From Thermomicrobiales bacterium (GTDB taxonomy: Bacteria; Chloroflexota; Chloroflexia; Thermomicrobiales; UBA6265), in contig DASYWB010000112.1 in assembly GCA_035936495.1 (NCBI GenBank), positions 1 to 44,318 of the forward strand: a DNA stretch of 44,318 nucleotides, read 5' to 3'. Within the stretch, counting starts at the first letter, position 1. Each line of letters begins with the position of its first letter. The notes beneath the pieces were generated by a model. It had not been told where the DNA came from. It was given only the letters and a program-made list of their open reading frames with translations, and did no database searches. The translations under genes were made by a program, and so were the position numbers. Below are positions 1 through 23,186 of this stretch, piece by piece.

Positions 1-38
1 CGACGTGGTCGTCCTCGTCCCCGGCCGACCCGGTTACC

Positions 39-473
39 CTAGGTTACATCCGCGAACGCCCCGACCGTATCCCACTTCGCCATGTCCGTGTCGAGCACTT
101 CAACCAAGGTGACAAACGCGAACGTCAACACGCTGCAGCCCAACTCCAGGTGCCCACCCATCGCCTTCTCGGTGTCCGAGAACGTCAGATGGGCATGGAC
201 GCGGCCACCGAGCACATGGCCCGTGATCGCCAGGATATCGAACGGTCCCTCGCCCTTCATGAAGGCGTTTTCGGGCGGCAAGTCGGTGCTGGACACCACA
301 TGAACATGGTAACTCGTCAGCGACCCCACTCCGCCGAGAAAGGCCCCGTCCCGAATCCCCAGCTCCCTCGCCGCCTGTTGCAGCCCTTCCAGCAAGTCCT
401 CGCCGGGATCAAGCCGCAGGCTCCACATCCGCCCGTATCGGGCAGGCTCCGCGTGCATCAGTTGCTCCCTCAC
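39..473 (-). CDS. PPC/DUF296-domain protein (predicted DNA-binding PCC fold)
   Basis: The 144-aa ORF has motifs GRMWSLRLDPGEDLLEGL, GSLTSYHV, GPFDILAITGHV and HAHLTFSD, typical of bacterial PPC/DUF296 proteins. The track start is GTG at 473, but AGGGAG-N6-ATG favours a start at 458. Confidence 0.7.
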   Translation of the reverse strand: MREQLMHAEPARYGRMWSLRLDPGEDLLEGLQQAARELGIRDGAFLGGVGSLTSYHVHVVSSTDLPPENAFMKGEGPFDILAITGHVLGGRVHAHLTFSDTEKAMGGHLELGCSVLTFAFVTLVEVLDTDMAKWDTVGAFADVT

Positions 474-514
474 ATAAGCGTTCTCGGAACGCTCCGTATC
501 GTCGTCGGCGCACC

Positions 515-1000
515 ATGCCCCACGCTGGTCTCGCCGTCAAGCCCTGGCATGAAGAGCGGCGAATCATGCTATCGCCCTCGTCTACCGTGTCCGCTACGAT
601 GTCGGATCATCACACCTTGCGTGAGATGGATTGGGAGCGGCTCGGTGACGAAGAAGACGAGCGGCCGATTACCCGGCAACGCGTCGGGGCAACGGTGCGC
701 GAAGAGAGCGGGGTGACGTTGGAAACGCTCGCTGGCCAGACCGGCATCTCGGCATCACACACGTCGCGCATGGAGCGTGGCCTCACTATGCCAAGCGACG
801 ACGCGCTTGCCCGAATCGCCACGGCTCTTGGGAGCGCCCTCCCGACCCTCGCGGCGGAAGAGGCAACAACGAAGGCGGTCGATGCGAATCTCGACGCCAT
901 CCTTACCAGGTTTGGCGTGTCCGAGGACGCGCGGGTGGACCTGCTGCGGCAGACACCGATCACACGGGCCGAGCCGGCCACCGTACTCGACCGGGACTAG
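515..1000 (+). CDS. XRE-family helix-turn-helix transcriptional regulator
   Basis: The HTH core reads RVGATVREESGVTLETLAGQTGISASHTSRMERGLTMPSDDALARIATAL. It is divergent from the PPC gene. The start is uncertain: in-frame ATGs at 515, 566 and 599 all lack a clear SD. Confidence 0.7.
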   Translation: MPHAGLAVKPWHEERRIMLSPSSTVSATMSDHHTLREMDWERLGDEEDERPITRQRVGATVREESGVTLETLAGQTGISASHTSRMERGLTMPSDDALARIATALGSALPTLAAEEATTKAVDANLDAILTRFGVSEDARVDLLRQTPITRAEPATVLDRD

Positions 1001-1277
1001 GGAGTCTATGTACAAGGCACAGCCGAAACCGCTGATCCTGCACTGCACGGCGGATGCCCTAGCGGTCGCAGCAGACTAGCCCACCACACTGAAGCCACGA
1101 GCACGGCGCTGGGAACATCCTCCTGGCGCCGTTCGCTATGTGGTGCGATAAAATATTTTAAGCCCACCCCGCTTCCTAATTCTGAGCTACCATCATACGG
1201 TCCATCCTCGTAATGCTAAAGGGGGAACGTAAATCGTCCTACTTGCCGGCCATCGCCGATTGGAACGTGGAGGAACC

Positions 1278-1433
1278 ATGGCGTCCGAAGCCGCCAACGC
1301 ACCGGCCCGCGCAATAGCGCAAAGACAGCGCGGCCCGGGGACTGGGTGTGACGCGCCGACCTTCTTCGTCAAGACCATGGAGGAGCAGATCGGCCGCCTG
1401 CTCGACCGGGTGGCGATGCCGATTGAGCGTTGA
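1278..1433 (+). CDS. small hypothetical protein (51 aa)
   Basis: GGAGG-N4-ATG at 1278 with TGA at 1431-1433. About 80 percent of third codon positions are G or C, like the neighbouring genes. It lies downstream of an AT-rich patch (gataaaatattttaag, about 1148-1165). It is below the ORF-track size cutoff and has no recognisable family. Confidence 0.3.
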   Translation: MASEAANAPARAIAQRQRGPGTGCDAPTFFVKTMEEQIGRLLDRVAMPIER

Positions 1434-1547
1434 TTGGCAACGGCGAGCCGTGGACTGCCAGGACAGTCGCGGAGGAGGGGTGCGGTCAGCCCGACCAGAG
1501 GACACCGGGCGCGGCGAACCTGCGGTGCTTGGCCGCGGCGGTAAGCT

Positions 1548-2306
1548 ATGATGGTCTGCGAGTATGGACAGGACCTGGCGACTTCGCGAGGTGGTTGGGA
1601 TCGTGGAGACGGCGTGAAGGGGACGAGGAATAACCCGGCGGTGAGAAGTTCCGCTCCTCCGACGACCGTCTGGCTGGTCCGTCACGCCGAGGCGAACAAT
1701 CCGAACCAGGTTCTTTACGGCCGGCTCCCCAGGTTTCATCTGAGTGAGCGAGGTCGCGAGCAGGCTGAGAGCGTCGCCGCGTTCTTCGCGGACCGGCCGG
1801 TGGCGGCCATCTACACGAGCCCACTGCTCCGGGCCCGGCAGACGGGGCGTGTCATCGCCCAGCACCACCCGGAAGCAACGATGCATCGTTCGCTGCTCCT
1901 CCACGAAGTCGGGAGCGCCTGGCAGGGGAGCGAGTTCGCCTCGCTGAAGCCGGGGTTCAGCACGTACGAGGACCGGCGGGAGCCGGACGACGAGTCGATT
2001 GAGGATATCCAGCGGCGGATGATCGCGTTCGTGGAACGGGTGCGCCGCCGCCACCCAGGGCAAGCCGTCGTCGCCGTTAGTCACGGCGATCCCATCACGA
2101 TCCTGCGACTCGCCCTCAGCGGCCGGCCCGTTACCCATGCTGCCATGCGGGGGCCGGACTACGCTGGCCTCTGTTCCGTCACCGAGGTCACCTTCCCGCC
2201 GGGCGGCGAGCCTCAGGTGTCCTATCTGACTGTCCCGGGGCTCGCCGATCCATCGGGTGGGTCGACCGAGGGGAAACTGCAGGCGGCCGATGAGGAGACG
2301 ACCTGA
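1548..2306 (+). CDS. histidine phosphatase family protein (phosphoglycerate-mutase-like)
   Basis: It carries the RHG-type motif VWLVRHAEANN, then LSERGREQA, IYTSPLLRARQT and the second catalytic His in AVSHGDPI. The likely true start is GTG at 1641 (GAGGAA about 10 nt upstream). Confidence 0.8.
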   Translation: MMVCEYGQDLATSRGGWDRGDGVKGTRNNPAVRSSAPPTTVWLVRHAEANNPNQVLYGRLPRFHLSERGREQAESVAAFFADRPVAAIYTSPLLRARQTGRVIAQHHPEATMHRSLLLHEVGSAWQGSEFASLKPGFSTYEDRREPDDESIEDIQRRMIAFVERVRRRHPGQAVVAVSHGDPITILRLALSGRPVTHAAMRGPDYAGLCSVTEVTFPPGGEPQVSYLTVPGLADPSGGSTEGKLQAADEETT

Positions 2307-2387
2307 TCCACCAGCGAGGGATTGCGGGTACGTCTACAACCATGTTCGACATCGTCGAGGGTAAGACGCCGCGGTTATAGCTGGTGG

Positions 2388-2759
2388 TTATGGGTTGCGG
2401 CGGCGAAGGATCTCGATGGCGGAACCGATGAGAACGCCACCGTCGAGGCGGACGTTGGGCTTGGTGACCCGAACTCGGACGGCTTCGACCGGCGGATGGC
2501 TCTCAAGGACTGCCGAGGCAATCCGCTCCGCCACGGCCTCGGTCAAGCTGAGGGGCGGACCCTCGACGACGCGGCGGACCTGACGGTAGACGTCGCTGTA
2601 GTCGATTGTCCGGGCGAGGTCATCGCTGAGGCCAGCGGCGCGAAGGTCACAGTGTAGCTCCACGTCCACGACGAAGCGCTGCCCGAGCTCGCGCTCGGCC
2701 GCGATGGTCCCATGGTGACCAAAGAAGAGCATGCCTTCCAGCACAATCCTGTCGTCCAT
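2388..2759 (-). CDS. folB: 7,8-dihydroneopterin aldolase
   Basis: The 123-aa product from ATG 2757-2759 reads MDDRIVLEGMLFFGHHGTIAAERELGQRFVVDVEL...TIDYSDVY, a classic FolB tunnel-fold signature. The longer 208-aa track ORF has a junk-like N-terminus. Confidence 0.85.
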   Translation of the reverse strand: MDDRIVLEGMLFFGHHGTIAAERELGQRFVVDVELHCDLRAAGLSDDLARTIDYSDVYRQVRRVVEGPPLSLTEAVAERIASAVLESHPPVEAVRVRVTKPNVRLDGGVLIGSAIEILRRRNP

Positions 2760-2846
2760 TGTCCGCCGCCACTCCGCTCTCGAAACCACCGTCCGGGAGG
2801 CCGGAGTATAACCCGGGCCTCGCCCGGCTAGTACTATAATCGCTCC
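2760..2846. promoter_or_regulatory. divergent promoter region between folB and the reductase gene
   Basis: A perfect TATAAT sits at 2835-2840, 6 nt before the ATG at 2847 and with no SD in between, which suggests a leaderless transcript. On the opposite strand, TATACT (2805-2810) lies about 45 nt upstream of the folB ATG. Confidence 0.4.
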
Positions 2847-3563
2847 ATGGATGGTGAGGTCTTCGCCCCCGGTTCCTCCGGAGGACCGCGGCCGCTCGTG
2901 ACGGTCAGCTATGCCCAAACGCTCGACGGGCGACTCGCGACCCGGACGGGAAGCTCGCGGTGGATCAGTGGGGCGGAGTCGCTCCGATTCGCCCATGAGT
3001 TGCGCGCGAGCCACGATGCGATCATGGTCGGCGCTGGTACGGTCTGCCTGGATGATCCGCGCCTAACCGTCCGCCTCGCGCAGGGGCGTGATCCGCTCCG
3101 GGTCATCGTGGACAGCACGCTGCGCATCCCGCTGACGGCAGCGGTTCTCGCCTCGGGTGCTGCCCAGGGAACGGTGCTGGTCGTGACGGAGCGAGCCCCG
3201 GCTGAGCGCCGGGCCGAAGCGATGGCGCTGGGGGCGACCGTCCTGCCCGTTCCGGTCGACGCTCAGGGCCGCGTCTCTCTCCCCACGGCGCTTGCGATGC
3301 TCGGCGAACGGGGGGTGCGCTCGGTGATGGTGGAAGGGGGAGCGCGACTGATCACCTCCCTCCTGCGCGATCGTTTGGTCGATCGCCTCGCGATCTGCAC
3401 GGCTCCGCTGATCCTGGGCACTGGGATCGACGCGGTCGGCGACCTGGGGATCATCGATCTCGGCCGGGCGCTGCGACTGGATCAGGCGCGGGCGACGCCA
3501 TACGGCGAGGATCTGATCATCCAGGGACGGGTGGTCTACCCGGAGGCCGGCGATGGCAACTGA
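2847..3563 (+). CDS. RibD C-terminal-type diaminohydroxyphosphoribosylaminopyrimidine / 5-amino-6-(5-phosphoribosylamino)uracil reductase (reductase domain only)
   Basis: The motifs VTVSYAQTLDGRLATRTGSSRWISGAESLRFAHELRASHDAIMVGAGTVCLDDPRLTVR and VMVEGGARL match the RibD_C/Rib7 reductase pattern. No deaminase domain is present. Confidence 0.8.
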   Translation: MDGEVFAPGSSGGPRPLVTVSYAQTLDGRLATRTGSSRWISGAESLRFAHELRASHDAIMVGAGTVCLDDPRLTVRLAQGRDPLRVIVDSTLRIPLTAAVLASGAAQGTVLVVTERAPAERRAEAMALGATVLPVPVDAQGRVSLPTALAMLGERGVRSVMVEGGARLITSLLRDRLVDRLAICTAPLILGTGIDAVGDLGIIDLGRALRLDQARATPYGEDLIIQGRVVYPEAGDGN

Positions 3564-4602
3564 GCGGGCGCCGATCGAGGCGACGGCACTCTGGCTCACC
3601 GCCCCGCGTACGGTGGAGTTCCGGCGAGAAGTCGTCCAGCCCCCAGGCCCGGGCGAGGCCCGGGTCCGCACGATTGCGTCGGCCATCAGCCAGGGGACCG
3701 AGTTGCTCGCCTATCGCGGCGAGGTTCCGCATGACCTGCCGCTCGATTTGCCCACACTGGCCGGCAGCTTCGCGTTTCCGATCAAGTATGGCTACGCGTC
3801 CGTCGGTCGCGTCCTCGACGTCGGTGCCGGCGTTGAGTCGTGCACCGAGGGCGATCTCGTCTTCGCTCTCTACCCGCACCAGACCGCCTACGTCGTCCCC
3901 GCGCCCATGGCAGTTCGCCTGCCTCCCGACCTCGACCCGCTCCTCGGCGTCTTCACCGCCAATCTGGAGACGGCTGTCAACGTGCTCCTCGATATGCCGT
4001 TGCGGCTGGGGGAAACCGTGGTCGTCTTCGGCCAGGGAACCGTTGGGCTTCTGATATGCCAGTTGCTGAGGCGAGCGGGCGCGGGATACGTGATGGCGGT
4101 TGACCCCCTTTCCGCACGGCGGGCGTTGGCGCGACGGATCGGCGCGGACGAGGCCACCGCGCCCGGTGAAGATCTCGTCGATCGCGTCCGAGCGTTGACG
4201 AGGGGGCGCGGTGCCGATGTCGCGATCGAGGCGAGTGGGAATCCGGCGGCTCTCCAAGCCGCGTTGGACGTGGTCGCCACCGAGGGGACCGTCGTCGGCG
4301 TGTCGTGGTACGGAACCAAGCCGGTGCCGCTCGTGCTCGGAGGGCACTTCCATCGCGGCCGGGTCCGGCTCCGTTCGTCTCAGGTGGGGCGAATCAACCC
4401 CGCGCTGGCTCCCCGCTGGGATCACGTGCGGCGTCAGGAACTCGTGACTGAACTCCTGCCGCAGCTGCACCTCGCGGACCTCATCACGCGCCGGGTGCCC
4501 TTCCATGAGGCGCCGGACGCCTTCCGGCTCATCGATGAGCGCCCAGCGGAAACGGTGCAGACCGTCCTGACCTACCACGGTGGAGGACTCGAGGATCATT
4601 GA
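3553..4602 (+). CDS. medium-chain dehydrogenase/reductase (alcohol dehydrogenase-like, zinc ligands not evident)
   Basis: It has a GroES-like N-domain and the Rossmann motif VVVFGQGTVGLLICQLL. The canonical GHE and Cys zinc ligands are replaced (ISQGTE, GYASVG). Its start overlaps the reductase stop by 11 nt. Confidence 0.75.
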   Translation: MATERAPIEATALWLTAPRTVEFRREVVQPPGPGEARVRTIASAISQGTELLAYRGEVPHDLPLDLPTLAGSFAFPIKYGYASVGRVLDVGAGVESCTEGDLVFALYPHQTAYVVPAPMAVRLPPDLDPLLGVFTANLETAVNVLLDMPLRLGETVVVFGQGTVGLLICQLLRRAGAGYVMAVDPLSARRALARRIGADEATAPGEDLVDRVRALTRGRGADVAIEASGNPAALQAALDVVATEGTVVGVSWYGTKPVPLVLGGHFHRGRVRLRSSQVGRINPALAPRWDHVRRQELVTELLPQLHLADLITRRVPFHEAPDAFRLIDERPAETVQTVLTYHGGGLEDH

Positions 4603-4642
4603 TCGTCGTTCGGATCGTATGTGGAAGGAGCACTGAGGACCG

Positions 4643-5044
4643 GTGCTGAAAGCTGGGGGCAAGGTGTACGAAATTGGGGTGGTAGCACAATTCGAGGCGG
4701 CGCACCGGCTCATCGGTGATTTCGGGCCGGCCACGCGCACGCACGGCCACACCTATCGGCTTGAGGTCATGCTGCGCGGGGAGTACCTGCGAGACGACTC
4801 CACCCTCTACGACCTGGCACAGCTCCGGGCCGACGTCGACGCTCTCGCTGCCACGCTGCACTACCGGGATCTCGCCGAGGTGCCGGGGCTCGAGGGAGTG
4901 AACACGACGGCCGAGGCCGTGGCCGGCTACTGCTGGGAGGCATTGGCGCCGAGTCTCCGCGGCCACGGCCTCATGTCGCTCGTGGTCCGCGTCTGGGAGT
5001 CGCCCCAGGCCTACGCGGCACGCGAGGACGTTCTAGGCTCCTAG
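4643..5044 (+). CDS. 6-pyruvoyl-tetrahydropterin synthase / QueD family (COG0720) protein
   Basis: FEAAHRL and THGHTYRLEV supply the three zinc-binding histidines of the PTPS T-fold. The product is 133 aa with a GTG start. Confidence 0.85.
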   Translation: MLKAGGKVYEIGVVAQFEAAHRLIGDFGPATRTHGHTYRLEVMLRGEYLRDDSTLYDLAQLRADVDALAATLHYRDLAEVPGLEGVNTTAEAVAGYCWEALAPSLRGHGLMSLVVRVWESPQAYAAREDVLGS

Positions 5045-5069
5045 CTGCGCCCACGTGGATCATCCAATT

Positions 5070-5864
5070 TCAGATCCGCTCGGCGACGATTGCGAGCTTG
5101 CGAACGCGGCTCGTCGAGAGCCATCCGGCCCACGTCGCGTGGGCGCTCAGCGCTTGGCGCCATGCCGCTTCCCCTATATCGGCGGCGATGCTGCTCCGTT
5201 CTCTCTGAAGTGCCGTGACGAGGCGGCGGGCGACCTCGGCGTGCACTGGGGTGCGGTCCTTCAGCGAGTGCGTGCTAAAGCCAGAGGTGGCGAGGAGTGC
5301 CAGGAAGTCAGCCTCGGGGATCAGCCAGACCGGCTCTTCGCCGAAGATGTCGCCAACCTCCTCACCGCTCATCGGCTGACCTGCCTCCAGTGTGAGGGCG
5401 AACCGGCCGCGAGATCCGAGGATCCCTGCCACGGCAGCGAGCAGATCCGCTTTGTCGGGGATGGAAAGCATCGTCTCGAGTAGGAGCACCGCATCGAGTT
5501 CCGTTGCGAACGGTGGCCGCGCGGCGTCGCCCACGACGAAGGATGCGTGGTCGGCAAGATTCCGCCGGTTCGCCTCGGACCGGGCCACATGGATCACTTC
5601 CGGCAAGCGGTCGACGCCCACGATCTGGCAGCCCAAGGTCTCCGCGAGGAAGAGGGCTGGACCGGCTGTACCGCAGCACAGATCCGCGACCCGCGAAGCG
5701 GCGCCGATGTTGGCGGCGCTCGCCAGGGCGAGTATCTCCGCGGTGGGCATGAAGCTCTCTTGGCCCACGAATGTCTCACCGAAGGCCGCGAGACGGGCAG
5801 GGTAGAGTGCGGCGTTCCACTCGGCACGGGTCACCGTCCTTAGCGCCAAGAGATCCTCCTTCAC
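5070..5864 (-). CDS. class I SAM-dependent methyltransferase
   Basis: SAM motif I reads VADLCCGTAGPALFLAE, with post-I IVGVD and FDAVLLLE-type motifs. The start is either GTG at 5864 or TTG at 5849, which follows AAGGAGGA. Confidence 0.75.
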   Translation of the reverse strand: MKEDLLALRTVTRAEWNAALYPARLAAFGETFVGQESFMPTAEILALASAANIGAASRVADLCCGTAGPALFLAETLGCQIVGVDRLPEVIHVARSEANRRNLADHASFVVGDAARPPFATELDAVLLLETMLSIPDKADLLAAVAGILGSRGRFALTLEAGQPMSGEEVGDIFGEEPVWLIPEADFLALLATSGFSTHSLKDRTPVHAEVARRLVTALQRERSSIAADIGEAAWRQALSAHATWAGWLSTSRVRKLAIVAERI

Positions 5865-5968
5865 CGCCCGCTGACACGGTCGCCCGACGCGGGTCCGACG
5901 ACAACCGGCACGTCCCTTGCAGGGCTATCGCACGGACGATACCGTTTTTGCCCGTCGTTGCGGCATCG

Positions 5969-6811
5969 ATGTCTGGAGTAATGCCAATGCACGCCACGTG
6001 CTCAGCCGAGTGGGGAGCGCCGTCCGGGGCTGGGAGGCGAGTGCCGCACCCATGGCTCGCGGCTGATCTCGCCCGCCTGTACGACGTGTTCCCGTTCGAC
6101 GCGGACGTACCCTATTACCTTAGCCTTGCCGGCGAGCAGAGAGGACCGGTGCTGGAAGTAGCGAGCGGCAGCGGGCGTGTGCTGTTGCCCCTTGCTAGGT
6201 CCGGTCATCGCCTGACTGGCCTCGACGCCTCCCCGGCGATGCTGGCATTGGCTCGCGAGAAGCTGCAGGCGGCAGGACCGGAAGTGATGGATCGTGCCAC
6301 CCTGATTGAGGCCGACATGCGTTCCTTCGCTCTTGGCGAGACGTTCGGACTGGCGATTATCGCCGCCAAGAGTTTCGCGTATCTGCTCACCCCGGCCGAG
6401 CAGCTCCAGGCGCTCCGGACGATCGCCAGCCACCTCCAACCGGGCGGCCTGCTCGCTCTCGACCTGCATCATCCGCGCCCTGCATGGTTGCTCGAACCGC
6501 CGGGCAGCCTCCGCCAGGATCTCGCCCAGGATGTACCCGAACAGGGCGTGACGGTGCTGCGCACGGAGACGGCGGTCAGTACCGACCTTGCGAACCAAAT
6601 CCGCGTCATCCGTTCCGTCTACGAGATCGTCGCGGCCGACGGCAGCGTGACGAAGCGGTTCGTTGAGTGGCCCTATCGTTACATCTATCGTTTTGAGGCG
6701 GAGCATCTGCTGGAACGCGCTGGATTGACGGTCGAGGCGCTCTACGGCGGGTACGAGCACGAGCCGTTCACCTCCGATTCGCCGATGATGCTGCTCCTGG
6801 CGCGCCGCTGA
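5969..6811 (+). CDS. class I SAM-dependent methyltransferase
   Basis: Motif I is VLEVASGSGRVLLPLARSG, followed by LTGLDASPAML and LQPGGLLAL. The track ORF begins at 5771 but its first 66 codons overlap the divergent gene and look non-coding. Candidate ATGs are at 5969, 5981 and 5987. Confidence 0.75.
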   Translation: MSGVMPMHATCSAEWGAPSGAGRRVPHPWLAADLARLYDVFPFDADVPYYLSLAGEQRGPVLEVASGSGRVLLPLARSGHRLTGLDASPAMLALAREKLQAAGPEVMDRATLIEADMRSFALGETFGLAIIAAKSFAYLLTPAEQLQALRTIASHLQPGGLLALDLHHPRPAWLLEPPGSLRQDLAQDVPEQGVTVLRTETAVSTDLANQIRVIRSVYEIVAADGSVTKRFVEWPYRYIYRFEAEHLLERAGLTVEALYGGYEHEPFTSDSPMMLLLARR

Positions 6812-6875
6812 GTCCCTCTGCCACTCCCTATGACCGTATTTGGCGGCCTTGCCGACGACCGGGGATGAAGGGTGG

Positions 6876-7949
6876 TCACTCCGTCAGGGCTTCCCGGACC
6901 GCGGCGAAGAAGAGGGCCGCTGTCTGCTCCCAGGTGGGCCGGGCGAGAGCGCGGACGCGTGCTGCTTCGCCTAGGCGGTGTCGTAGATGCTCATCCTCGG
7001 CGAGGAGCGCCAGGGAGCCTGCCAAGGCCTGAATATCACCGGGCGGCAAGACAAACCCTTCCTGGCCATCCTCGGCGAGATATGGCAAGTTCCCGGCGCA
7101 CCAACCGACGACAGGCAGGCCCGCCGCCATCGCCTCACCGTAGACCGTGCCGTACGGCTCCTTCAGGCTCGGCAGGACGAAGGAGTCTGCCGCGGCATAG
7201 AGAGCGGCGACGGCCCCGATCGAGACCGGTCCATGGACGACGACACGTCCGCTGAGATCAGGCTGGGCCAGCCGCCGTCGCAGCCGGGCGGCGTAGGGTG
7301 GATCGGCGCGGTCGTCGCCGACGAGATGCAAGGTTGCCATATCGGGGGGGAGGCGGGAGAAGGCGTCGAGCAGGTCGTGGATCCCCTTCCGCTCAACCCA
7401 GTTGCCGACACAGAGGAAGGCCGCTTGACGGCCACACCGGAGGTCACCCGGCCATGGGCCAGGGGCGGGGGCGACGTCGCGGCCTGGCGGCACGACGCGC
7501 AGCCGTTCCCGTGGTGTACCATCCCGCACCAATTGGTCGGCGAGCGCATCGCTGGCGACCATGAGGAGGCGGGCGCGCCGGTAGGCCAGCTGATCCAGGG
7601 ACGCTTGCACCGCGGCGCGGATCGGACCGTGGTCAATGCCTCCAGGGGGCTGGTGTAGCATCCCGATCAGCGGGACGGCAGGCGAACGCACCAGGGTCCA
7701 AGGTCCGACGTATGCGGCCGCGATACTGTCGAGGATGAATGCGCCGGCGTCAGCCGCCATCGCTTCGCGAAGCACGCGGGGCGCGGCGAGCGCTGGGAGC
7801 GGGAACAGGGATTCGGGAAATGAGACGAAGGTGATGTGAGCGCCATGGTGCGGGGCAAGGTCGGCGATGCGCCGGTGGTAGAGGTAGCCGCCGGTCAGCC
7901 GGCCCGGATCGCCGAGGGTGAGCAAGGCAATTTTTAGGATGCGGGTCAT
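6876..7949 (-). CDS. GT4-family (group 1) glycosyltransferase
   Basis: The N-terminus MTRILKIALLTLGDPGRLTGGY and the C-terminal E-x7-E region (PSLKEPYGTVYGEAMAAGLPVV) are typical of GT-B GT4 enzymes. Confidence 0.8.
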   Translation of the reverse strand: MTRILKIALLTLGDPGRLTGGYLYHRRIADLAPHHGAHITFVSFPESLFPLPALAAPRVLREAMAADAGAFILDSIAAAYVGPWTLVRSPAVPLIGMLHQPPGGIDHGPIRAAVQASLDQLAYRRARLLMVASDALADQLVRDGTPRERLRVVPPGRDVAPAPGPWPGDLRCGRQAAFLCVGNWVERKGIHDLLDAFSRLPPDMATLHLVGDDRADPPYAARLRRRLAQPDLSGRVVVHGPVSIGAVAALYAAADSFVLPSLKEPYGTVYGEAMAAGLPVVGWCAGNLPYLAEDGQEGFVLPPGDIQALAGSLALLAEDEHLRHRLGEAARVRALARPTWEQTAALFFAAVREALTE

Positions 7950-9045
7950 TCACGTCGCTCCCACGCCGTTCGGGATATCCGGGTTATTGGGCGGCGGCGA
8001 GCGCTTTCCGCTCGAACTCTCGCGTGCCCTGGCGCGCCACGTGGCCTGCCAGTTGGTGACGTTCGGACCCGAGTCCCGCGTGGAACGCGAGGCGAGCGGG
8101 CTGACGATCCAGACCCTGCGCTACCGAGTACTCCTCCACGGGCACCCGGCGCATCCCGTCGCCCCCGGGTTGCTAGCCGTTCTTCGTCACGCGGATATCG
8201 TCCACACACATCATATGCGGAGCACACCGAGTCGCCTAGCGGCACTTGGTGGGCGTGCGCTCCAGAAGCGACTGGCGGTGACTGATCATGGACTGCAGGG
8301 CGGGGATTGGTTCGGCGTGTTGCCGCGTCTGTTCGATCGTTTCCTGATGGTCTCGGCATACTCAGCACGTGAGCTGCACGCTCCTCCCGGGCGTAGCCGG
8401 GTCATCTATGGGGGAGCCGATCCCAATCGGTACAAGCCAGATCCCGCCGGTCGCCGCGAGGGTGTGCTATTCGTGGGGCGCCTGACCCCGCACAAAGGCG
8501 TCGATCGCCTGATCGACGCGCTCCCCCTCAATGCCCGGCTCCTCGTGGCTGGCTCGGCCGGTCACGATCCATTGCCGCCGGAGAGCGAGTATCCTGCCCT
8601 GCTTCGCCGGCTAGCAACCGGGCGCGACGTGACGTTCCTCGGGCCGGTCTCAGATGACAACTTGCCGGCACTGTACCGACAGGCAGCCGTCTTCGTCCTG
8701 CCGTCCGTGGAGCGGACATGCTACGGGCGGGATATTCGTGTCTCTGAGCTGTTGGGACTGGTGGTCATCGAGGCGATGGCGAGCGGAACTCCTGTGATCT
8801 GCAGCCGATTGGGTGGACTGCCGGAGATCGTCGAGGACGGCGTGACGGGGTTTCTGGTCGAGCCGGGCAACGTCGAGGAGTTGCGCGAGCGCCTGGACGA
8901 GATGCTACGCAACCCGGTGCTGGCTCAACAGATGGGCCGCCGTGCCCGCGAGTCGGTGGTGGAGCGGTTTACGTGGGACGCGTGTGCGCGGCGATGCCTG
9001 GCCGCGTACCAGGAGATGTGGGTTGCGGGTGATGAGGCTCTCTGA
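7939..9045 (+). CDS. GT4-family (group 1) glycosyltransferase
   Basis: The N-terminus MRVIHVAPTPFG and the region PSVERTCYGRDIRVSELLGLVVIEAMASGTPVICSRLGGLPEIVEDGVTGFLV are GT4-like. The ATG at 7939 is preferred over the track start at 7918. Confidence 0.8.
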   Translation: MRVIHVAPTPFGISGLLGGGERFPLELSRALARHVACQLVTFGPESRVEREASGLTIQTLRYRVLLHGHPAHPVAPGLLAVLRHADIVHTHHMRSTPSRLAALGGRALQKRLAVTDHGLQGGDWFGVLPRLFDRFLMVSAYSARELHAPPGRSRVIYGGADPNRYKPDPAGRREGVLFVGRLTPHKGVDRLIDALPLNARLLVAGSAGHDPLPPESEYPALLRRLATGRDVTFLGPVSDDNLPALYRQAAVFVLPSVERTCYGRDIRVSELLGLVVIEAMASGTPVICSRLGGLPEIVEDGVTGFLVEPGNVEELRERLDEMLRNPVLAQQMGRRARESVVERFTWDACARRCLAAYQEMWVAGDEAL

Positions 9046-9091
9046 TTGGGAGCCTGGCCGAGAGTAGCCGCCCACGGCCCGTCGTTCCCAG

Positions 9092-9715
9092 TCAGCCACG
9101 GAGATCGCCAGTGACCTGGCCGAGGGACAACAGGTGCCCCATCCGCTCCTCTTTCGTGCGAAGGTACTGGAGGTTATCGGGATTAGGGCGGACGGGTAGG
9201 GGCAGGCGCTCGACGACCTCGATCCCGTGCTCCTCGAGACCGGCGATTTTGGCCGGGTTATTCGTGAGCAGACGCACCTGATGTACGCCGAGGTCGCGGA
9301 GGATCGCGGCGGCGTAACCGTAGTCACGGACATCTTCTGGGAGACCGAGGGCACGGTTGGCCTCAACCGTGTCGAGGCCCTGGTCCTGCAGCGCATAGGC
9401 GCGCAGCTTGTTGATCAGGCCAATGCCCCGGCCCTCCTGGCGCAGATAAAGCAAGACGCCTCGGCCCTGCTCCTGGATGCGCAGCATCGCGGACGCCAGT
9501 TGCTCGCCGCAGTCGCAGCGACACGAGCCGAAGACGTCGCCGGTCATGCATTCGGAGTGCAGCCGGGCCAGGACCGGTCCGCCACGATCGACCTGCCCTA
9601 AGGCGAGCGCCAACTGATCCTGGCCGTCGGACGATCGGTACCCGGCAAGGCGGAAAGTCCCGTACCGGGTCGGCAGTTGGGTCTCCACCAGGCGGTGGGC
9701 AGACGGTGATGTCAA
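9092..9715 (-). CDS. ribA: GTP cyclohydrolase II (stand-alone, no DHBP synthase domain)
   Basis: It has the zinc triad in [20 protein letters not shown], plus [23 protein letters not shown] and TVEANRALG. The best start is TTG at 9713-9715, preceded by GAAAGGGA. The 288-aa track ORF has an Arg/Trp/Cys-rich junk N-terminus. Confidence 0.85.
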
Positions 9716-9963
9716 CGGGGTTCCCTTTCGCTCGTGCGGATGCCCGGCGTGCCAAGCGATCCGGCCCGCCGACGCCGGTAGAGCGGCGGATCTGATCCTC
9801 CAGCACTGGCTGTTGCAAGACCCGGACCAGCCACCGGTGGTCCGTGGCCCCGCCCGCCGCACCTTCCACCGCACCCGCGACACGGCGGCCAGCCTGATGC
9901 TCACCAAGGGTGTATCCGCAAACCCGTGTGCTGGGTGCAGGCCGTCGCGACGCCCCACCCCGC

Positions 9964-10566
9964 TCAGGGTCGCGGTCCGTCGGAAGCGAAGACGCGTCCG
10001 AGCACCGGGCTCACGAACTCGCTTGTCAGGCAGTCCATATAGATCTCATCCGACCGCCCAGCCGCCCCGCGGATGGCCTGCCGGCGGCGGCCGATCTCGT
10101 TGAACCCCGCCCTCGTGTAGGCGCGCACCCCGGCGAGGTTCGACGCGTCAACCGACAGCATCACGTTGTGCAGCCCGAGCGCGGTGAACGCCACGTCGAG
10201 CAGCAGGCGTACGGCCTCCGTTCCGTACCCTTTGCCACGGTCCTCCACGTCGCCGATATGCACGCCGATCCCGGCGGTGCCGTGACGGTGGTCCACCGAT
10301 TTCAGGGCGCAGGTCCCGATCGGTCGCCACTCTTCCCGTGCGTAGATGGTGAAGACGAGGTCCTCACCGGTTGCGGCACGATCGTACCACGCCGTTCGGG
10401 CCTCGACCGTCATTGGCCGTGGCTCCAACCCGAGCCAGTGGGCGGCGGCGAGGTCATTGATCCAGCGCAGATAGAGCGGCAGCAGGTCGCGCCGCAGCGG
10501 CCCGAGAGCAACGCGCTCGCCGACGATGTTGAGGACGGGCTGCTCCAATCGATGGGTCTCGGCCAT
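9964..10566 (-). CDS. GNAT-family N-acetyltransferase (RimJ/RimL-like)
   Basis: The acetyl-CoA motif is [19 protein letters not shown], followed by [13 protein letters not shown]. The ATG at 10564-10566 follows AAGGAGG. Confidence 0.8.
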
Positions 10567-10588
10567 GAGTTGGCCCTCCTTTGACCGT

Positions 10589-10641
10589 CTCCTCGAAGCG
10601 ATTACGAACCGACGGATTGCTCCCACCACCGGGCCGGAGTA
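10589..10641 (+). repeat. 53-bp direct repeat, copy A (orphan fragment homologous to the 3' end of ORF 11205-11543)
   Basis: ctcctcgaagcgattacgaaccgacggattgctcccaccaccgggccggagta matches copy B at 45 of 53 positions without gaps. It would encode LLEAITNRRIAPTTGPE. Confidence 0.7.
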
Positions 10642-11204
10642 CCTGGGTATCTCAGCGGCTCTGAGGCGCCGTCAAAACCGATCACCCATTCGCGCGCGGA
10701 GCTGCCGGACCTTGAAGAACCGGCGGCTCCTTGGCTTCGGCTCCGCCGCTACGGCGCTGGTGTCCCAAAGGCTTCAGCAAAGGAGGCTACCGGCGTCCCC
10801 GCGGCCCTGACGGCGATCCGCTCGCTAGCCTGCGATCGGCGAACCCGGCTTGTCCGAGCGTCGCGGATGCTACCCACGTCTCGAATGGTTGTCAATCGCC
10901 ACGCGGGCCGAACTGGCCAGGGTACTAGCTGGGATCGGTACGAATGGGTGAGCCGGTCGGCAGGCAATGAGCCTATTGGCACCACATGCAGCCTCATGGA
11001 GAATCGGGGGAGGTTGGCCAGAGGCGGCCACCTCGCGAGCATTGGCGTTCCCCCTGGGATGATCCAGCAACGAGAGGATGAGCCGATGCGGTTAATCCTT
11101 ACCTTCTTCCTGCGCTTCACCATGCGTCCCCTCCGGGAGGCCGTGTTCCCCTCGTCCATGCCCACGGCGACGGCTGCGACGAGGACCAGCTTGTTAGGGG
11201 CACC

Positions 11205-11543
11205 ATGCCGAGACCTGAGGACGTTGCGCACGAAGCCCCGGTGTCTTTCCGCGTGCAGTGGATCGACCCTCACCCACTGGGGGAAGACTATCCATCCGAC
11301 GACATCATCCTAAGCATTGAGCCTCTCGGTCAGCCAAGGGCCGTCTTTATCATCTCTCGGGAGAGGTACGAGCCATTCCAAGATGCCGTAACCGAAGCGA
11401 TTGCGTCGCAGGCGGTGTACTGGGTGATGTTGGATGGTTCCACCATGTCGACGTTGCCGTCGCGCCTGAGCGATGCAACGCTTGTCCGTCTGCTCGAAGC
11501 GATCCAGAACCGACAGATTGCTCCCTCCCCAGGGCCGGAGTAA
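11205..11543 (+). CDS. hypothetical acidic protein (112 aa)
   Basis: The ATG is preceded by AGGGG. GC3 is moderate and there is no recognisable family. Its last 17 codons form repeat copy B. Confidence 0.4.
   Translation: MPRPEDVAHEAPVSFRVQWIDPHPLGEDYPSDDIILSIEPLGQPRAVFIISRERYEPFQDAVTEAIASQAVYWVMLDGSTMSTLPSRLSDATLVRLLEAIQNRQIAPSPGPE
11490..11542 (+). repeat. 53-bp direct repeat, copy B
   Basis: ctgctcgaagcgatccagaaccgacagattgctccctccccagggccggagta is 85 percent identical to copy A, which lies 901 bp upstream. Confidence 0.7.
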
Positions 11544-11557
11544 CTGAATGGCTCCGG

Positions 11558-11815
11558 TTACTCGCAGCTGACCCCAATCGGCGTGCCCGTCGGGACCGCT
11601 GCATCCCCCCGCAGAACGAGGCCCTCCGCGGCAGCCAGACGCTCCTCAACGGCGGCGAGCCGAAGCATCAGCTCCGCAGATCTCTCCACCACCGCCGCGA
11701 GCTCCCCGCGTTGCTGCTCAAGCGCGTGGACCCGCAATGTCAACTCCGGAACCGCCTGTAGGAGGGCAGCGACCTGCGTTTCCTGAGCCGTGGTCCGGGT
11801 TTCCAGCGCCGCCAC
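11558..11815 (-). CDS. hypothetical coiled-coil ORF (85 aa), coding status doubtful
   Basis: It has Leu/Ala/Glu heptad-like sequence (LETRVAALETR... LEQQRGELAAVVERSAELMLRLAAVEERLAAAEG), a GTG start and no SD. It sits in a decayed region next to a transposase relic. Confidence 0.25.
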   Translation of the reverse strand: MAALETRTTAQETQVAALLQAVPELTLRVHALEQQRGELAAVVERSAELMLRLAAVEERLAAAEGLVLRGDAAVPTGTPIGVSCE

Positions 11816-11933
11816 CCGCGTCTCCAGGACCGCAACGGCAGGTGTCCCGCTGACCGGTGTCGTGGCCGGCGGCGACCCATCCTAGCCGGTACTGTCCGCA
11901 TGCCAACCACCGGTGAGCATCCCGAGCAGCACT

Positions 11934-12399
11934 ATGACGATAGGCAGGGGGATCAAGGCGTGGCGCACGGCGACTCCCTCCTCTGCTTGACCGGCCAGGG
12001 CAGCGACACGGCATCATAGCGGACCGGGGAGACGCGACCTGCTGAAGACGTCGACCTTCCACCGCGTTCGAGTTGGCGCTGGTCACCTTCGCCACCGACG
12101 AGGGGATCGGGCCGGACCGCCAGGTGGTGCTAGTGCTCGACCAAGCAGGTCGTCACCTGAGTCCCCGGCTGGTCGTCCCGGAGGGCGTCCACCTGGCGCC
12201 CCTGCCCCCTCCACGCCCGAGTTGCAACTGGCAGAACGGCTGTGGCCGCTGCTCGACGAATCGATTGTCAACCAGGGCCATCGCCGACCTGGGTGAGCTG
12301 GAGACCATCCTCGTCGATCGATGCCAGACCTTGCGCGCCCATCCGGCGCGGGTTACCGTCCACCCTCACGTCCGCTGGCGGACCGAGGACGTCGTATGA
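11934..12399 (+). pseudogene. IS630-family (DDE_3-type) transposase remnant, C-terminal part, several frameshifts and stops
   Basis: Read across three frames it gives MTIGRGIKAW.., TGETR, AFELALVTFATDEGIGPDRQVVLVLDQAGRHLSPRLVVPEGVHLAPLPP, then STPELQLAERLWPLLDESIVN in a shifted frame, then AIADLGELETILVDRCQTL back in the first frame. This matches the conserved ...LVLDxAGWH...LPPYSPELQPAERLWP...L.ELE... pattern. The N-terminal HTH half is absent. Confidence 0.55.
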
Positions 12400-12471
12400 A
12401 CCGTCTAGACTTGGCCGGAGTCCGTATTACTTCTGATGTTCTCCGTCGTACTCATCACTCGCATAGTTCAG

Positions 12472-13068
12472 TCAAGCGGAGACGGTATCCGGATGAGCGG
12501 CGGCCAACCGCTCCAGCTCGCTCACCGTTCGCTCTAGCTCCTCGACCAAGGGGGTGGACTCCACCGCCCGAAAGGCATCGACCAGCGCCCGGTAGTACCA
12601 CAGCGTGCCGTCACGCCCGCCCCGGAAACGATCCCAAAGCGCTTCGCTGAGCTGGCGGTAATCGACCAGGATCGACCGCGCGTTGTGCAGTTTGTCAGCG
12701 GCGGAGACGAGGCGAACCGATGGGGAGGCGTCGCCGAGGTGCGCAACGTAGGCTTCCTTGCGCTGCCGCCACGGGGGTTTCGGCACTGTTTCAGCGTCGG
12801 TACAGCCGTCGATGATGGCAACGACGTCCTCGCCAAAGCGGCGGCGAATCTCAGCGCGGGCCGCGGCACCGCCCTGATCCTCGATCGCATCGTGCAGCAA
12901 GGCGGCAATTGCCTCGTCCTCCCCGCCCCCGGATTCCATCACGATCGCCGTCACTGCCAAGAGGTGCGAAAGATAGGGGATGGTCGAGCCCTTGCGAACC
13001 TGGCCGGCGTGGAGTCGGCTTGCGAAGGCGAAGGCCTCGTCGAGGCGAGGCGAGAAGATGGTTGCCAT
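12472..13068 (-). CDS. HD-domain hydrolase, RelA/SpoT-type (p)ppGpp-hydrolase-like (small alarmone hydrolase-like)
   Basis: The motifs are FAFASRLHAGQVRKGSTIPYLSHLLAVTAIV and AIAALLHDAIEDQ. The ATG at 13066-13068 follows GGAAGGA. The earlier track start overlaps the upstream gene. Confidence 0.8.
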   Translation of the reverse strand: MATIFSPRLDEAFAFASRLHAGQVRKGSTIPYLSHLLAVTAIVMESGGGEDEAIAALLHDAIEDQGGAAARAEIRRRFGEDVVAIIDGCTDAETVPKPPWRQRKEAYVAHLGDASPSVRLVSAADKLHNARSILVDYRQLSEALWDRFRGGRDGTLWYYRALVDAFRAVESTPLVEELERTVSELERLAAAHPDTVSA

Positions 13069-13117
13069 AGTGCCTGATCCTTCCGCGTCTCGGGGCGCAT
13101 CGCGTCGCTCGTCGCCG

Positions 13118-22643: not shown

Positions 22644-23186
22644 TTACTGGCGAATCGAGCGACTACCACCATCGGTTGGCGGCGGCGAACCGCTAGCCCC
22701 GTCCCGACTCCGCCGGGCAGGCGGTGACGGTGCTGGAACTGGGCTTGGCGTAGGTGCAGGGGACGGAGAGGAGCCGCCAGGAACCCGGATGCCATCACCA
22801 CCCGAGGACCCTGTACACGAGGTGTAGGCATAGGAGCGGCAAATGCAGGTGCTCTCGGCACTCCGGTACCAGTCACAACAGCGGTAGTACTTGCGGCACC
22901 CGTTGGCGTCGGCCGTGGTTGCCACCAGCCAGCATTGATTTCCACCACAGGTGTAAGCCGGGCCGTTGTAGCACTCGGTGCATCGTCCCCCGGAGTCACA
23001 CGAGTCGCAGCCGGGCGCGCCATTGCAGAGCGGTGGCGTCGGTGCGGCGAGGCTGGATTTCGGAGCGACCGCTCGCGTCGCCACGCCGAAGAGCGCTCCG
23101 CCCAGGAGCGTGAGAAACCGGCGCCGGCCAACGCGTGTCGCCGTGAGGCCCTCCCGCCCCTGACCGCTGCCCATTTCAGCCACCAT
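22644..23186 (-). CDS. TAT-signal cysteine-rich secreted protein, amine-dehydrogenase light-chain (MauA)-like core plus Pro/Ser-rich tail
   Basis: The twin-arginine signal is VGRRRFLTLLGGALFG...SSLAAP. The core has 13 Cys and 2 Trp in about 70 residues: LCNGAPGCDSCDSGGRCTECYNGPAYTCGGNQCWLVATTADANGCRKYYRCCDWYRSAESTCICRSYAYTSC. The tail reads SSPSPAPTPSPVPAPSPP. The ATG at 23186 follows GGAGGA-N7, and other in-frame ATGs lie at 23201, 23192 and 23174. Confidence 0.7.
   Translation of the reverse strand: MVAEMGSGQGREGLTATRVGRRRFLTLLGGALFGVATRAVAPKSSLAAPTPPLCNGAPGCDSCDSGGRCTECYNGPAYTCGGNQCWLVATTADANGCRKYYRCCDWYRSAESTCICRSYAYTSCTGSSGGDGIRVPGGSSPSPAPTPSPVPAPSPPARRSRDGASGSPPPTDGGSRSIRQ

Follow-up and report, generated by a model that had tools for sequence, protein, structure and literature searches.

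The 44,318-nt stretch of DNA analysed here (the window) is contig DASYWB010000112.1 of the Thermomicrobiales bacterium assembly GCA_035936495.1. Between positions 1548 and 10566 it carries eleven genes, among them those for a stand-alone GTP cyclohydrolase II (GCH II), a RibD_C-type reductase, a medium-chain dehydrogenase/reductase (MDR), a protein of the 6-pyruvoyltetrahydropterin synthase (PTPS) fold, the aldolase FolB, two GT4 glycosyltransferases and two methyltransferases. This cluster belongs to the Chloroflexota/Rubrobacter subtype of a widespread conserved pathway. We propose that the pathway starts from GTP and yields a pterin glycoside, a 2-amino-4-oxo pteridine that is both glycosylated and methylated, possibly resembling cyanopterin, and assign to this reading of the product a probability of about 0.45. 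The original prediction, made from the sequence of the window, had suggested a tailored pteridine or azapteridine-like metabolite; a glycosylated pteridine is again the reading that suits the genes best, although its identity is deduced rather than observed.

The combination of genes had also been put forward as new. Here the earlier claim fails, as the core association of PTPS-IV, GCH II and RibD_C has already been published (PMC5445326). The window instead represents a distinct subtype of an already known orphan neighbourhood, in which the metal site of the PTPS-fold protein is kept, FolB is linked to the cluster and GCH II is of the canonical kind.

Conservation of the cluster in related genomes

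Genomes were scanned, one per species, with the motif FGPA[TAQ]RxHG[HA], and at least 577 species genomes were confirmed. For comparison, 89 loci (numbered with the prefix L) were assembled from the best 80 of these at least 577 species genomes, eight loci from a protein look-up and the window itself, and neighbouring genes were counted by tblastn with the window proteins. The loci come from about eight phyla and include Chloroflexota, Actinomycetota, Dormibacterota, Alpha- and Gammaproteobacteria, Myxococcota, Acidobacteriota, Gemmatimonadota and a spirochaete metagenome-assembled genome (MAG). Homologues of the MDR and the PTPS-fold protein with 65–79% identity are present in many Chloroflexota/Thermomicrobiales and Rubrobacteraceae assemblies.

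In 79 of 86 loci the gene immediately upstream of PTPS encodes the MDR. Of the 89 loci, 79 contain a GT4 gene, which in 67 of 78 follows immediately downstream of PTPS; these three genes form the invariant core. GCH II, a RibD_C protein lacking the deaminase domain and a methyltransferase are mostly encoded within 5 kb. The original prediction took the genes to belong together, and they clearly co-occur in related genomes; from locus to locus, GCH II and RibD-type enzymes for the opening steps are combined with enzymes of the pterin type, a glycosyltransferase and a methyltransferase. Its further claim, that this is a dedicated conserved module and not a scattered housekeeping arrangement, is borne out by a core order kept across phyla and between unrelated flanks, and by overlapping reading frames.

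On three contigs, two of Mb scale from Chloroflexia MAGs and one from Thermomicrobiales, the genes for RibD_C, MDR, PTPS and an MT2-type methyltransferase follow one another in one direction, and are followed by GT4a (reverse), GT4b (forward) and GCH II (reverse). The seven-gene module recurs in four Thermomicrobiales-type genomes, with unrelated flanks. The Rubrobacter-type order begins with FolB in reverse orientation, followed by RibD_C, MDR, PTPS, GT4 and methyltransferase genes reading forwards.

Two subtypes can be distinguished. Subtype A comprises 30 loci including the window, from Chloroflexota, Rubrobacter and Dormibacterota; its GCH II is of the Tyr type (see below), and in nine loci from two phyla a PlsC-like acyltransferase gene and a gene for a transporter of the major facilitator superfamily (MFS) are present. 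Subtype B comprises 59 loci, from Streptomyces, Halomonas/Vreelandella, many Alphaproteobacteria, Gaiellales and others. Its additional genes encode a divergent CDP-alcohol phosphatidyltransferase (43/59), an MprF-like LPG_synthase_TM protein (35/59) and a creatininase/ArfB-like protein (22/59). Subtype B loci with RefSeq annotation include those on a 927-kb plasmid of S. fungicidicus and on plasmid pTs417 of the purple sulfur bacterium Ca. Thiodictyon syntrophicum. On pTs417 the RibD-family and phosphatidyltransferase genes overlap by 4 nt, which is the tightest link observed between a pathway enzyme and a lipid enzyme.

Several observations on individual loci may be added. The pTs417 operon (L094, region 12168–13876) also contains a cytochrome b gene. 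Three types of MFS transporter accompany the cluster, in Thermomicrobiales (L088, 14360–15871), Rubrobacter (L005, 5448–6680) and Streptomyces (L057, 6175–7401); the recurrence of MFS genes is a hint that the product, or one of its precursors, leaves the cell. Finally, a 9-kb contig labelled ‘uncultured Klebsiella sp.’ (L023, CAYZZI010000072.1) carries a Chloroflexota-type subtype A cluster whose core proteins are 49–60% identical to those of the window, and is probably mis-binned.

GCH II, the RibD_C reductase and FolB

The GCH II gene (9092–9715, − strand; Pfam GTP_cyclohydro2, E 1e-70) is stand-alone, without a RibB fusion. Its product aligns closely and over its full length to E. coli RibA (2BZ0, E 3e-65), meets the NCBIfam RibA models and retains the equivalent of Tyr105. 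In work by Spoonamore et al. from 2006, this Tyr reportedly separates GCH II enzymes that form the diaminopyrimidine from S. coelicolor SCO6655, which forms a formamidopyrimidine (FAPy). A FAPy-type GCH II in the window was rejected because the Tyr is present. Homology instead supports the window protein as the putative entry enzyme, converting GTP to 2,5-diamino-6-ribosylamino-4(3H)-pyrimidinone 5'-phosphate.

A GCH II gene is found within 10 kb of the PTPS gene in 47 of the 89 loci, and the switch residue is Tyr in all 31 copies from outside Streptomyces and Met in all 16 Streptomyces copies (within loci L043 and L051–L085). In many Rubrobacter loci the cluster has no GCH II of its own, and the first intermediate can then come from a copy elsewhere in the genome; these loci argue that the cluster-linked GCH II is an extra copy. 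Halomonas-type loci carry a Tyr-type GCH II together with a creatininase/ArfB-like gene.

The stand-alone RibD_C reductase (2847–3563, +; Pfam RibD_C, E 5e-53) has no deaminase domain. It scores 178 bits in the NCBIfam ribD_Cterm domain model (cut-off 150) but falls below the archaeal equivalog TIGR01508 (155 against a 186-bit cut-off), the model for ArfC, the diaminoribosylaminopyrimidinone phosphate (DARPP) reductase. Its best PDB matches are 6P8C (E 4e-37) and 2AZN/MJ0671, archaeal reductases which act ahead of deamination, and on these sequence similarities it probably works like the archaeal 2,5-diamino-6-ribosylamino-4(3H)-pyrimidinone 5'-phosphate reductases. A homologue occurs in 53 of the 89 loci and is absent from most Streptomyces loci. 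The 11-nt overlap of its gene with that of the MDR, noted in the original prediction, is present in the window and conserved in L001 and L088. A perfect TATAAT hexamer lies 6 nt upstream of the RibD_C ATG (window 2822–2849; …tagtacTATAATcgctccATG), and its position suggests that the RibD_C–MDR–PTPS operon may be read from a leaderless or very short-leader transcript. The box was not reported by a consensus promoter scan because a −35 match is lacking.

FolB is encoded at 2388–2759 on the − strand, divergently from the RibD_C operon (Pfam FolB, E 2e-32). The protein scores 101 bits in the NCBIfam folB equivalog (cut-off 72), and the catalytic E/Y/E/K residues are conserved relative to the S. 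aureus dihydroneopterin aldolase (1DHN); to judge from these residues, it is a canonical and catalytically intact 7,8-dihydroneopterin aldolase. Its gene adjoins that of RibD_C in 17 of 30 subtype A loci and in none of the 59 subtype B loci. Rubrobacter and the window have the two genes in divergent orientation; in Chloroploca and other Chloroflexota they run in one direction, in the order FolB, RibD_C, MDR, PTPS and GT4. FolB is a clade-level accessory of the cluster.

The MDR dehydrogenase and the PTPS-IV-like protein

The MDR (3553–4602, +; Pfam ADH_zinc_N) had been described as lacking obvious zinc ligands. The alignment agrees: the catalytic Cys/His/Glu ligands are replaced by Ser/Tyr/Ala, there is no Cys-rich structural zinc lobe and the family has no conserved Cys at all. 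Its only full-length NCBIfam relative is BchC. Motifs that are invariant in the family are SxGTE, KYGY, PHQ, GxGxxG, an acidic VDP motif, SWYG, FH and SSQVG, and the conserved acidic residue after beta-2, in the VDP motif, suggests the use of NAD. An AlphaFold2 (AF2) model with a pLDDT (predicted local confidence) of 89 has as its top Foldseek matches threonine, butanediol, idonate, sorbitol and xylitol dehydrogenases (TM-scores 0.75–0.80); quinone and enoyl reductases are not its nearest matches. Although the zinc ligands are missing, the modelled fold is nevertheless closest to the zinc-dependent branch of polyol and secondary-alcohol dehydrogenases.

The PTPS-fold protein (4643–5044, +; Pfam PTPS, E 2e-27) had been predicted to have a PTPS/QueD fold. 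The fold was upheld by Pfam; an identity as a PTPS or QueD enzyme was not, since neither the catalytic Cys nor the Asp-His pair is present and the protein resembles PTPS-IV. It misses the NCBIfam cut-offs for QueD and PTPS (55 against 89 bits for TIGR03367), and its best PDB match is 3D7J (SCO6650), an uncharacterised protein. The PTPS-IV group has been defined in the AGeNNT network paper by the signature FGPAQ and by a neighbourhood containing PF00925 and PF01872 (PMC5445326). The segment DFGPATRTHGH of the window protein agrees with four of the five positions of this signature, and PF00925 (GCH II) and PF01872 (RibD_C) are both found within 5 kb of the PTPS gene in the window, as in most related loci. 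FGPAQ itself is present in all 59 subtype B loci, while the fifth position in subtype A is T in 24 of 30 and Q in four.

The metal-site residues H21, H34 and H36 are all kept in the 30 subtype A proteins; the 59 subtype B proteins have H-H-A. Neither subtype has the catalytic Cys or the Asp-His pair, the window protein having His-Tyr in place of Asp-His. The Glu with which T-fold proteins anchor 2-amino-4-oxopyrimidines is invariant (E119). Because the window protein keeps the third His that proteins of the SCO6650/3D7J type have lost, it is best described, on its sequence, as belonging to a sister clade of classical PTPS-IV.

Other PTPS classes were considered and rejected. QueD/PTPS-I (6-carboxytetrahydropterin synthase) is ruled out by an Ala at the Cys of CxxxHGH and by the score below TIGR03367. 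The motifs of PTPS-II and PTPS-III have been defined as CxxxxxHGH and ExxHGH (PMC5041015); PTPS-II, of tetrahydrobiopterin (BH4) synthesis, and PTPS-III, of the folate bypass, are ruled out by the residues G-P-A-T-R-T ahead of HGH, with no Cys at −6 and no Glu at −3. Neither QueC nor QueE is encoded among the annotated neighbours of window-type and Rubrobacter-type loci. In PGAP/RefSeq, PTPS-IV proteins are named ‘6-carboxytetrahydropterin synthase’ and given a queuosine Gene Ontology term, for example at 9010–9408 of L093 (S. fungicidicus plasmid p1) and 9001–9405 of L094 (pTs417). As these proteins have no catalytic Cys/Asp-His pair and their genes never adjoin queC or queE, the naming is probably a systematic misannotation.

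Glycosyltransferases, methyltransferases and peripheral genes

GT4a (6876–7949, −; Pfam Glycos_transf_1 and Glyco_transf_4), and not GT4b (7918–9045, +; Pfam Glycos_transf_1, E 4e-37), is the orthologue of the universal GT4 of the cluster. Over its full length it is 36–37% identical to the GT4 encoded after PTPS in Rubrobacter and 28–32% identical to the Streptomyces and Halomonas GT4s. In one Rubrobacter locus (L005), 4-nt stop/start overlaps couple the PTPS, GT4 and methyltransferase genes. GT4b, whose start codon is uncertain because the maximal open reading frame (ORF) overlaps the start of GT4a, has orthologues only in L001, L002, L009 and L088 (67–69% identity) and is a lineage-specific accessory. 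The best PDB relatives of the GT4s are generic: 6KIH (a GT4 of unknown function), PimA, PimB', MshA and GlgM-type enzymes. GT4b matches the pteridine glucosyltransferases 5ZE7 (E 5e-6) and 9V0L (E 3e-8) far less well than it matches generic GT4s, and GT4a has no match to either at E 1e-5 or better.

A methyltransferase gene is present in 66 of the 89 loci. MT2 of the window (approximately 5987–6811, +; Pfam Methyltransf_25; class I) is given with a start taken from the gene call in L087, and its maximal ORF begins at 5771. The nearest NCBIfam model to MT2 is that of a daptide-type N-methyltransferase, of which it is not a member (118 against a 175-bit cut-off). Orthologues with 60–65% identity occupy the same position in L001, L002, L009 and L088, and MT2 is a lineage-specific tailoring methyltransferase of the Thermomicrobiales-type cluster; other lineages use unrelated sub-families at the equivalent place. 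In Halomonas-type loci the GT4 and the methyltransferase are fused, as in a 644-aa protein of Vreelandella aquamarina (L037, 10414–12348), which argues that both activities share one substrate.

The coordinates and domains of all eleven genes were confirmed by Pfam and NCBIfam, with identical calls in L087, an 8-kb contig from a strain 98% identical to the window. As a single set, the eleven held up in part. The core grouping is conserved; the histidine phosphatase and the GNAT are confined to this species and the first methyltransferase, MT1, has scattered relatives. MT1 (5070–5849, −; Pfam Methyltransf_25/11; class I) has no counterpart in L001, L002, L088 or the Rubrobacter loci. Homologues with 37–47% identity lie within about 8 kb of PTPS in eight subtype B loci of Actinomycetota, and MT1 is a possible accessory. 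The histidine phosphatase of branch 1 (1548–2306, +; Pfam His_Phos_1, E 2e-33) adjoins the cluster, among the 89 loci, only in the window and L087. In Aquifex, a phosphatase of the histidine family dephosphorylates the ribitylaminopyrimidine 5'-phosphate of riboflavin synthesis (PMC12051542). By analogy, the window enzyme could remove a side-chain phosphate; as a non-conserved neighbour, its membership of the pathway is unproven. The GNAT N-acetyltransferase (9964–10566, −; Pfam Acetyltransf_3, E 3e-20) has no homologue in the related loci examined and shows no sign of belonging to the pathway.

Genes absent from the cluster

The original prediction had noted that the rest of the riboflavin operon, as well as FolE, FolK and FolP, is missing, and this is what was found. 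E. coli FolE, FolK and FolP gave no tblastn matches in the window or the 88 other loci, and with E. coli RibD as the query no deaminase domain was detected in any of them, the reductase half alone being matched. Pfam found no further rib or fol genes in the rest of the window. Dihydroxybutanone phosphate (DHBP), lumazine and riboflavin synthases were found neither in the window (Pfam) nor in the annotated neighbourhoods of its relatives, and no F420 genes are annotated in the neighbourhoods of related loci. The module as a piece of a riboflavin, folate or queuosine operon was rejected because the partner genes of those operons are not adjacent. With no deaminase in any locus, the 2-amino group is expected to be kept.

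Proposed pathway and alternative explanations

The following route is proposed. GCH II would open GTP to 2,5-diamino-6-ribosylaminopyrimidinone 5'-phosphate, and the deaminase-less, archaeal-type RibD_C would reduce this to the ribitylamino compound with retention of the 2-amino group; both steps are supported by homology. The zinc-less, NAD-type MDR may then re-oxidise the side chain, most simply at the C2' hydroxyl, which would yield the same keto-amine as the Amadori step of GTP cyclohydrolase I (GCH I). Polyol and polyol-phosphate 2-dehydrogenases are MDRs. The amino-ketone would cyclise onto the 5-amino group, and the PTPS-IV-like protein, holding the 2-amino-4-oxopyrimidine through its invariant Glu, could guide it to a pterin of the dihydroneopterin type. 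FolB would trim this to 6-hydroxymethyl-dihydropterin. GT4a may glycosylate the pterin and, in this lineage, a further sugar may be attached by GT4b and a methyl group placed on the sugar or the ring by MT2. Export or membrane association seems likely in many lineages, given the recurrent genes for MFS transporters, acyltransferases, CDP-alcohol phosphatidyltransferases and MprF-like proteins. An intact FolB in the operon and the absence of a deaminase anywhere both point to an intermediate of the dihydroneopterin type.

A number of observations weigh against this route. The demonstrated products of cluster-type enzymes stop at GCH II and its FAPy-forming variant in Streptomyces. Every characterised PTPS and QueD enzyme has a catalytic Cys and an Asp-His pair that the PTPS-IV-like protein does not possess, and with the zinc ligands lost it is uncertain how the MDR works and even in which direction it runs. 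Most Streptomyces loci have no RibD_C, so that ribityl reduction may be dispensable. FolB occurs in none of the 59 subtype B loci, nor in L001, L002 and L088, three of the four loci closest in synteny; the 6-hydroxymethyl step could be confined to certain lineages, or FolB could be a housekeeping copy. A specific kinship of the GT4s to the pteridine glycosyltransferases BGluT, PgtA and CtPGT was rejected because generic GT4s rank higher in the PDB search, and the methyltransferases of three lineages are not orthologous to one another.

Some of these observations fit a product that is not a pterin at all. The ribityl chain might be kept, to be modified or condensed by the MDR and PTPS-IV and glycosylated by the GT4, giving a glycosylated ribitylaminopyrimidine or an 8-ribityl-pteridine, a 2-amino analogue of lumazine. 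GCH II and the archaeal-type reductase are indeed the only steps with firm homology, PTPS-IV has no residues for known pterin side-chain chemistry, and FolB is missing from subtype B and the three close relatives. The FolB of the window, however, acts on dihydroneopterin, has an intact active site and has counterparts in the operon of several Chloroflexota. Moreover, a ribityl state is not universal, as most Streptomyces versions lack RibD_C, and neither a lumazine-synthase-like nor a DHBP-synthase gene is present in the window or the annotated neighbourhoods. A ribityl product is plausible, but we regard it as less likely than a pterin glycoside. The lipid genes of subtype B raise the different prospect of a membrane-anchored product. 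By analogy with the synthases of phosphatidylinositol phosphate and phosphatidylglycerol phosphate (PIP/PGP synthases), a pterin or pyrimidine head group with a polyol phosphate could be joined to CDP-diacylglycerol, dephosphorylated, glycosylated by a PimA-like GT4 and flipped to the outer side; for subtype A, the alternative would be a glycoside acylated by a PlsC-like acyltransferase. This would give a role to the CDP-alcohol phosphatidyltransferase and LPG_synthase_TM genes (43/59 and 35/59 loci), to the 4-nt overlap on pTs417 and to the PlsC-like acyltransferase and MFS genes of nine subtype A loci, and PimA, PimB' and MshA are among the best PDB relatives of the GT4s. Against this, the window, L001, L002 and L088 carry no lipid genes (L088 has an MFS exporter alone), such neighbours are common and may be coincidental, and we know of no pterin lipid. 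The repeated occurrence of lipid-type genes points to an anchored product in many lineages, but not in the window in particular, and on the whole we regard it as rather improbable.

Less probable again is a housekeeping supply, with the glycosyltransferase and methyltransferase as passengers: the genes might provide riboflavin or F420 synthesis with 5-amino-6-ribitylaminouracil, PTPS-IV filling the place of the pyrimidine deaminase missing from an archaeal-type route, or folate synthesis with dihydroneopterin independently of FolE. The involvement of PTPS-IV in F420 synthesis has been mentioned in a remark citing unpublished work (PMC5041015), which lends this some support. GCH II, the ArfB-like creatininase and RibD_C mirror archaeal ArfA, ArfB and ArfC, F420 is made by Chloroflexota and Actinomycetota, and FolB is adjacent. 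But the GT4 gene adjoins PTPS in almost all loci, is translationally coupled to it in L005 and is fused to the methyltransferase gene in Halomonas, which is hard to reconcile with passengers. No lumazine, riboflavin or DHBP synthase, FolK, FolP or F420 genes are adjacent, and among the carriers of the cluster are Halomonas and Acetobacteraceae, not known as F420 producers. S. coelicolor is also said, in the 2006 work of Spoonamore et al., to have separate GCH II copies for riboflavin; many Rubrobacter loci lack a cluster GCH II, and the incomplete metal site of subtype B PTPS-IV is unlike that of known deaminases. The view that housekeeping and envelope genes with no relation to one another lie together by chance might seem to be favoured by the histidine phosphatase, MT1 and the GNAT, three of the eleven genes, which are not conserved neighbours. 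This view is effectively refuted by conservation, since the core order and orientation are kept across at least eight phyla, with unrelated flanks and overlapping frames.

The pterin glycoside reading can itself be extended. It is conceivable, if rather far-fetched, that the pterin ring is made independently of GCH I, by a redox substitute for the Amadori step, that the glycosides form a family not described before and are membrane-anchored in many lineages, through a CDP-alcohol phosphatidyltransferase or an acyltransferase, and that the product would be the first known pterin-headed glycolipid.

Comparison with known systems

The closest relative among studied loci is SCO6650–SCO6655 of S. 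coelicolor, which has the same core of MDR, PTPS-IV, GT4 and methyltransferase genes with GCH II nearby, and shares with the window the motif FGPA-x-R-x-HG. The enzymes of this locus were reportedly characterised between 2006 and 2008. The two differ in that the window has an H-H-H metal site (H-H-A in S. coelicolor) and a Tyr-type GCH II (Met in the FAPy-forming SCO6655), and needs no deformylase of the creatininase type. The window also has FolB, a second GT4 and a methyltransferase of a different family, and is without the CDP-alcohol phosphatidyltransferase and LPG_synthase_TM. Full-text literature searches on the function of the cluster found no publication that assigns a product to the PTPS-IV/GCH II neighbourhood.

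The pteridine glycosides of cyanobacteria and Chlorobium (biopterin glucoside, tepidopterin and cyanopterin) share with the proposed route the logic of a GTP-derived pterin, a side-chain oxidoreductase and a GT-B glycosyltransferase. Cyanopterin is a 6-hydroxymethylpterin 4-O-methylglucuronyl-galactoside, and thus a natural disaccharide with an O-methyl sugar (PMC3546692). Its structure matches the FolB, two GT4s and methyltransferase of the window. The known pathways, however, use GCH I, a PTPS-II with CxxxxxHGH and a sepiapterin reductase of the short-chain dehydrogenase/reductase (SDR) family, in contrast to the GCH II and RibD_C, the PTPS-fold protein without CxxxxxHGH and the MDR of the window, and the GT4s of the window are no closer to BGluT than is any other GT4. 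The MDR and RibD_C are the only oxidoreductases encoded in the cluster.

The beginning of riboflavin and F420 synthesis in archaea, by ArfA (GCH III), the creatininase-family deformylase ArfB and ArfC/MJ0671, includes the same reduction by a stand-alone RibD_C ahead of deamination. The ArfA/B route is echoed in subtype B, where a creatininase-family gene adjoins the FAPy-type GCH II. Unlike the archaeal route, the cluster has no deaminase, lumazine synthase or FO synthase, and is linked to MDR, PTPS-IV and GT4 genes. The toxoflavin (tox) operon, with ToxB (GCH II), ToxE (RibD), ToxA (methyltransferase), ToxC and ToxD, shares a dedicated GCH II, a RibD-type enzyme and an S-adenosylmethionine (SAM)-dependent methyltransferase. 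ToxE, however, has a deaminase domain where the cluster has none, FolB, PTPS-IV, MDR and GT4 have no tox counterpart, and no homologues of ToxC or ToxD appear in the Pfam tables of the loci. The analogy with toxoflavin and azapteridines drawn in the original prediction is therefore weak, as a deaminase is needed for the toxoflavin route and is absent from every locus.

For the formation of a pterin without GCH I there is a precedent in Chlamydia. According to Adams et al. (mBio, 2014), chlamydial GCH II and TrpF, a phosphoribosylanthranilate (PRA) isomerase that carries out an Amadori step, are said to feed the pterin branch in place of FolE and FolQ, so that the GCH II product reaches dihydroneopterin phosphate. 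The chlamydial bypass relies on the PRA isomerase and serves folate, whereas here a reductase/dehydrogenase pair and a T-fold protein are proposed, and the route would end in a glycoside.

Other features of the window

Genes in the window, which has a G+C content of about 65%, were picked by codon-position G+C and then scanned with Pfam and NCBIfam. The remainder of the window is ordinary core chromosome, encoding TsaD, TsaB, TsaE, RimI, ClpX, trigger factor, ABC transporters and a c-di-AMP receptor. The receptor gene (PF06153; 14416–14760, −) lies directly downstream of the tsaD region and is followed by genes for an M20 peptidase and an HD_4 protein (a RelA/SpoT-like HD domain) with overlapping frames (12472–14302, −). 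Next to tsaE, at 23176–24374 (−), a gene for a MauE-like membrane protein (PF07291) is translationally coupled to one for a 202-aa protein with no Pfam match.

A 299-aa ORF antisense to the histidine phosphatase gene (1239–2138, −) was rejected as a high-GC shadow ORF; it is 97% conserved in L087 because that contig comes from the same species. Rfam found no FMN, tetrahydrofolate (THF), preQ1 or other relevant riboswitch or RNA element, in the whole window at the gathering threshold, in positions 1–12500 at E values up to 1, or in seven related loci. All-against-all clustering of the ORFs of the loci, in search of further conserved partners, gave mostly antisense shadow ORFs without a Pfam match, as a consequence of high G+C; the only partners to emerge were LPG_synthase_TM and one methyltransferase family, and subtype A loci yielded no conserved families other than those described above.

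Significance of the cluster

The neighbourhood spans hundreds of species, among them soil actinomycetes, halophiles and phototrophic Chloroflexota. Given the intact FolB of the operon and the absence of a deaminase, five soluble enzymes would suffice to test the pathway directly in vitro. If the proposed reading is true, the naming of these proteins in databases as QueD or 6-carboxytetrahydropterin synthase would have to be corrected. The cluster would also represent a second biochemical route to the pterin ring. Pterin glycosides would then extend far beyond the cyanobacteria and green sulfur bacteria, as candidate UV-A screens, photoreceptor chromophores or redox mediators.

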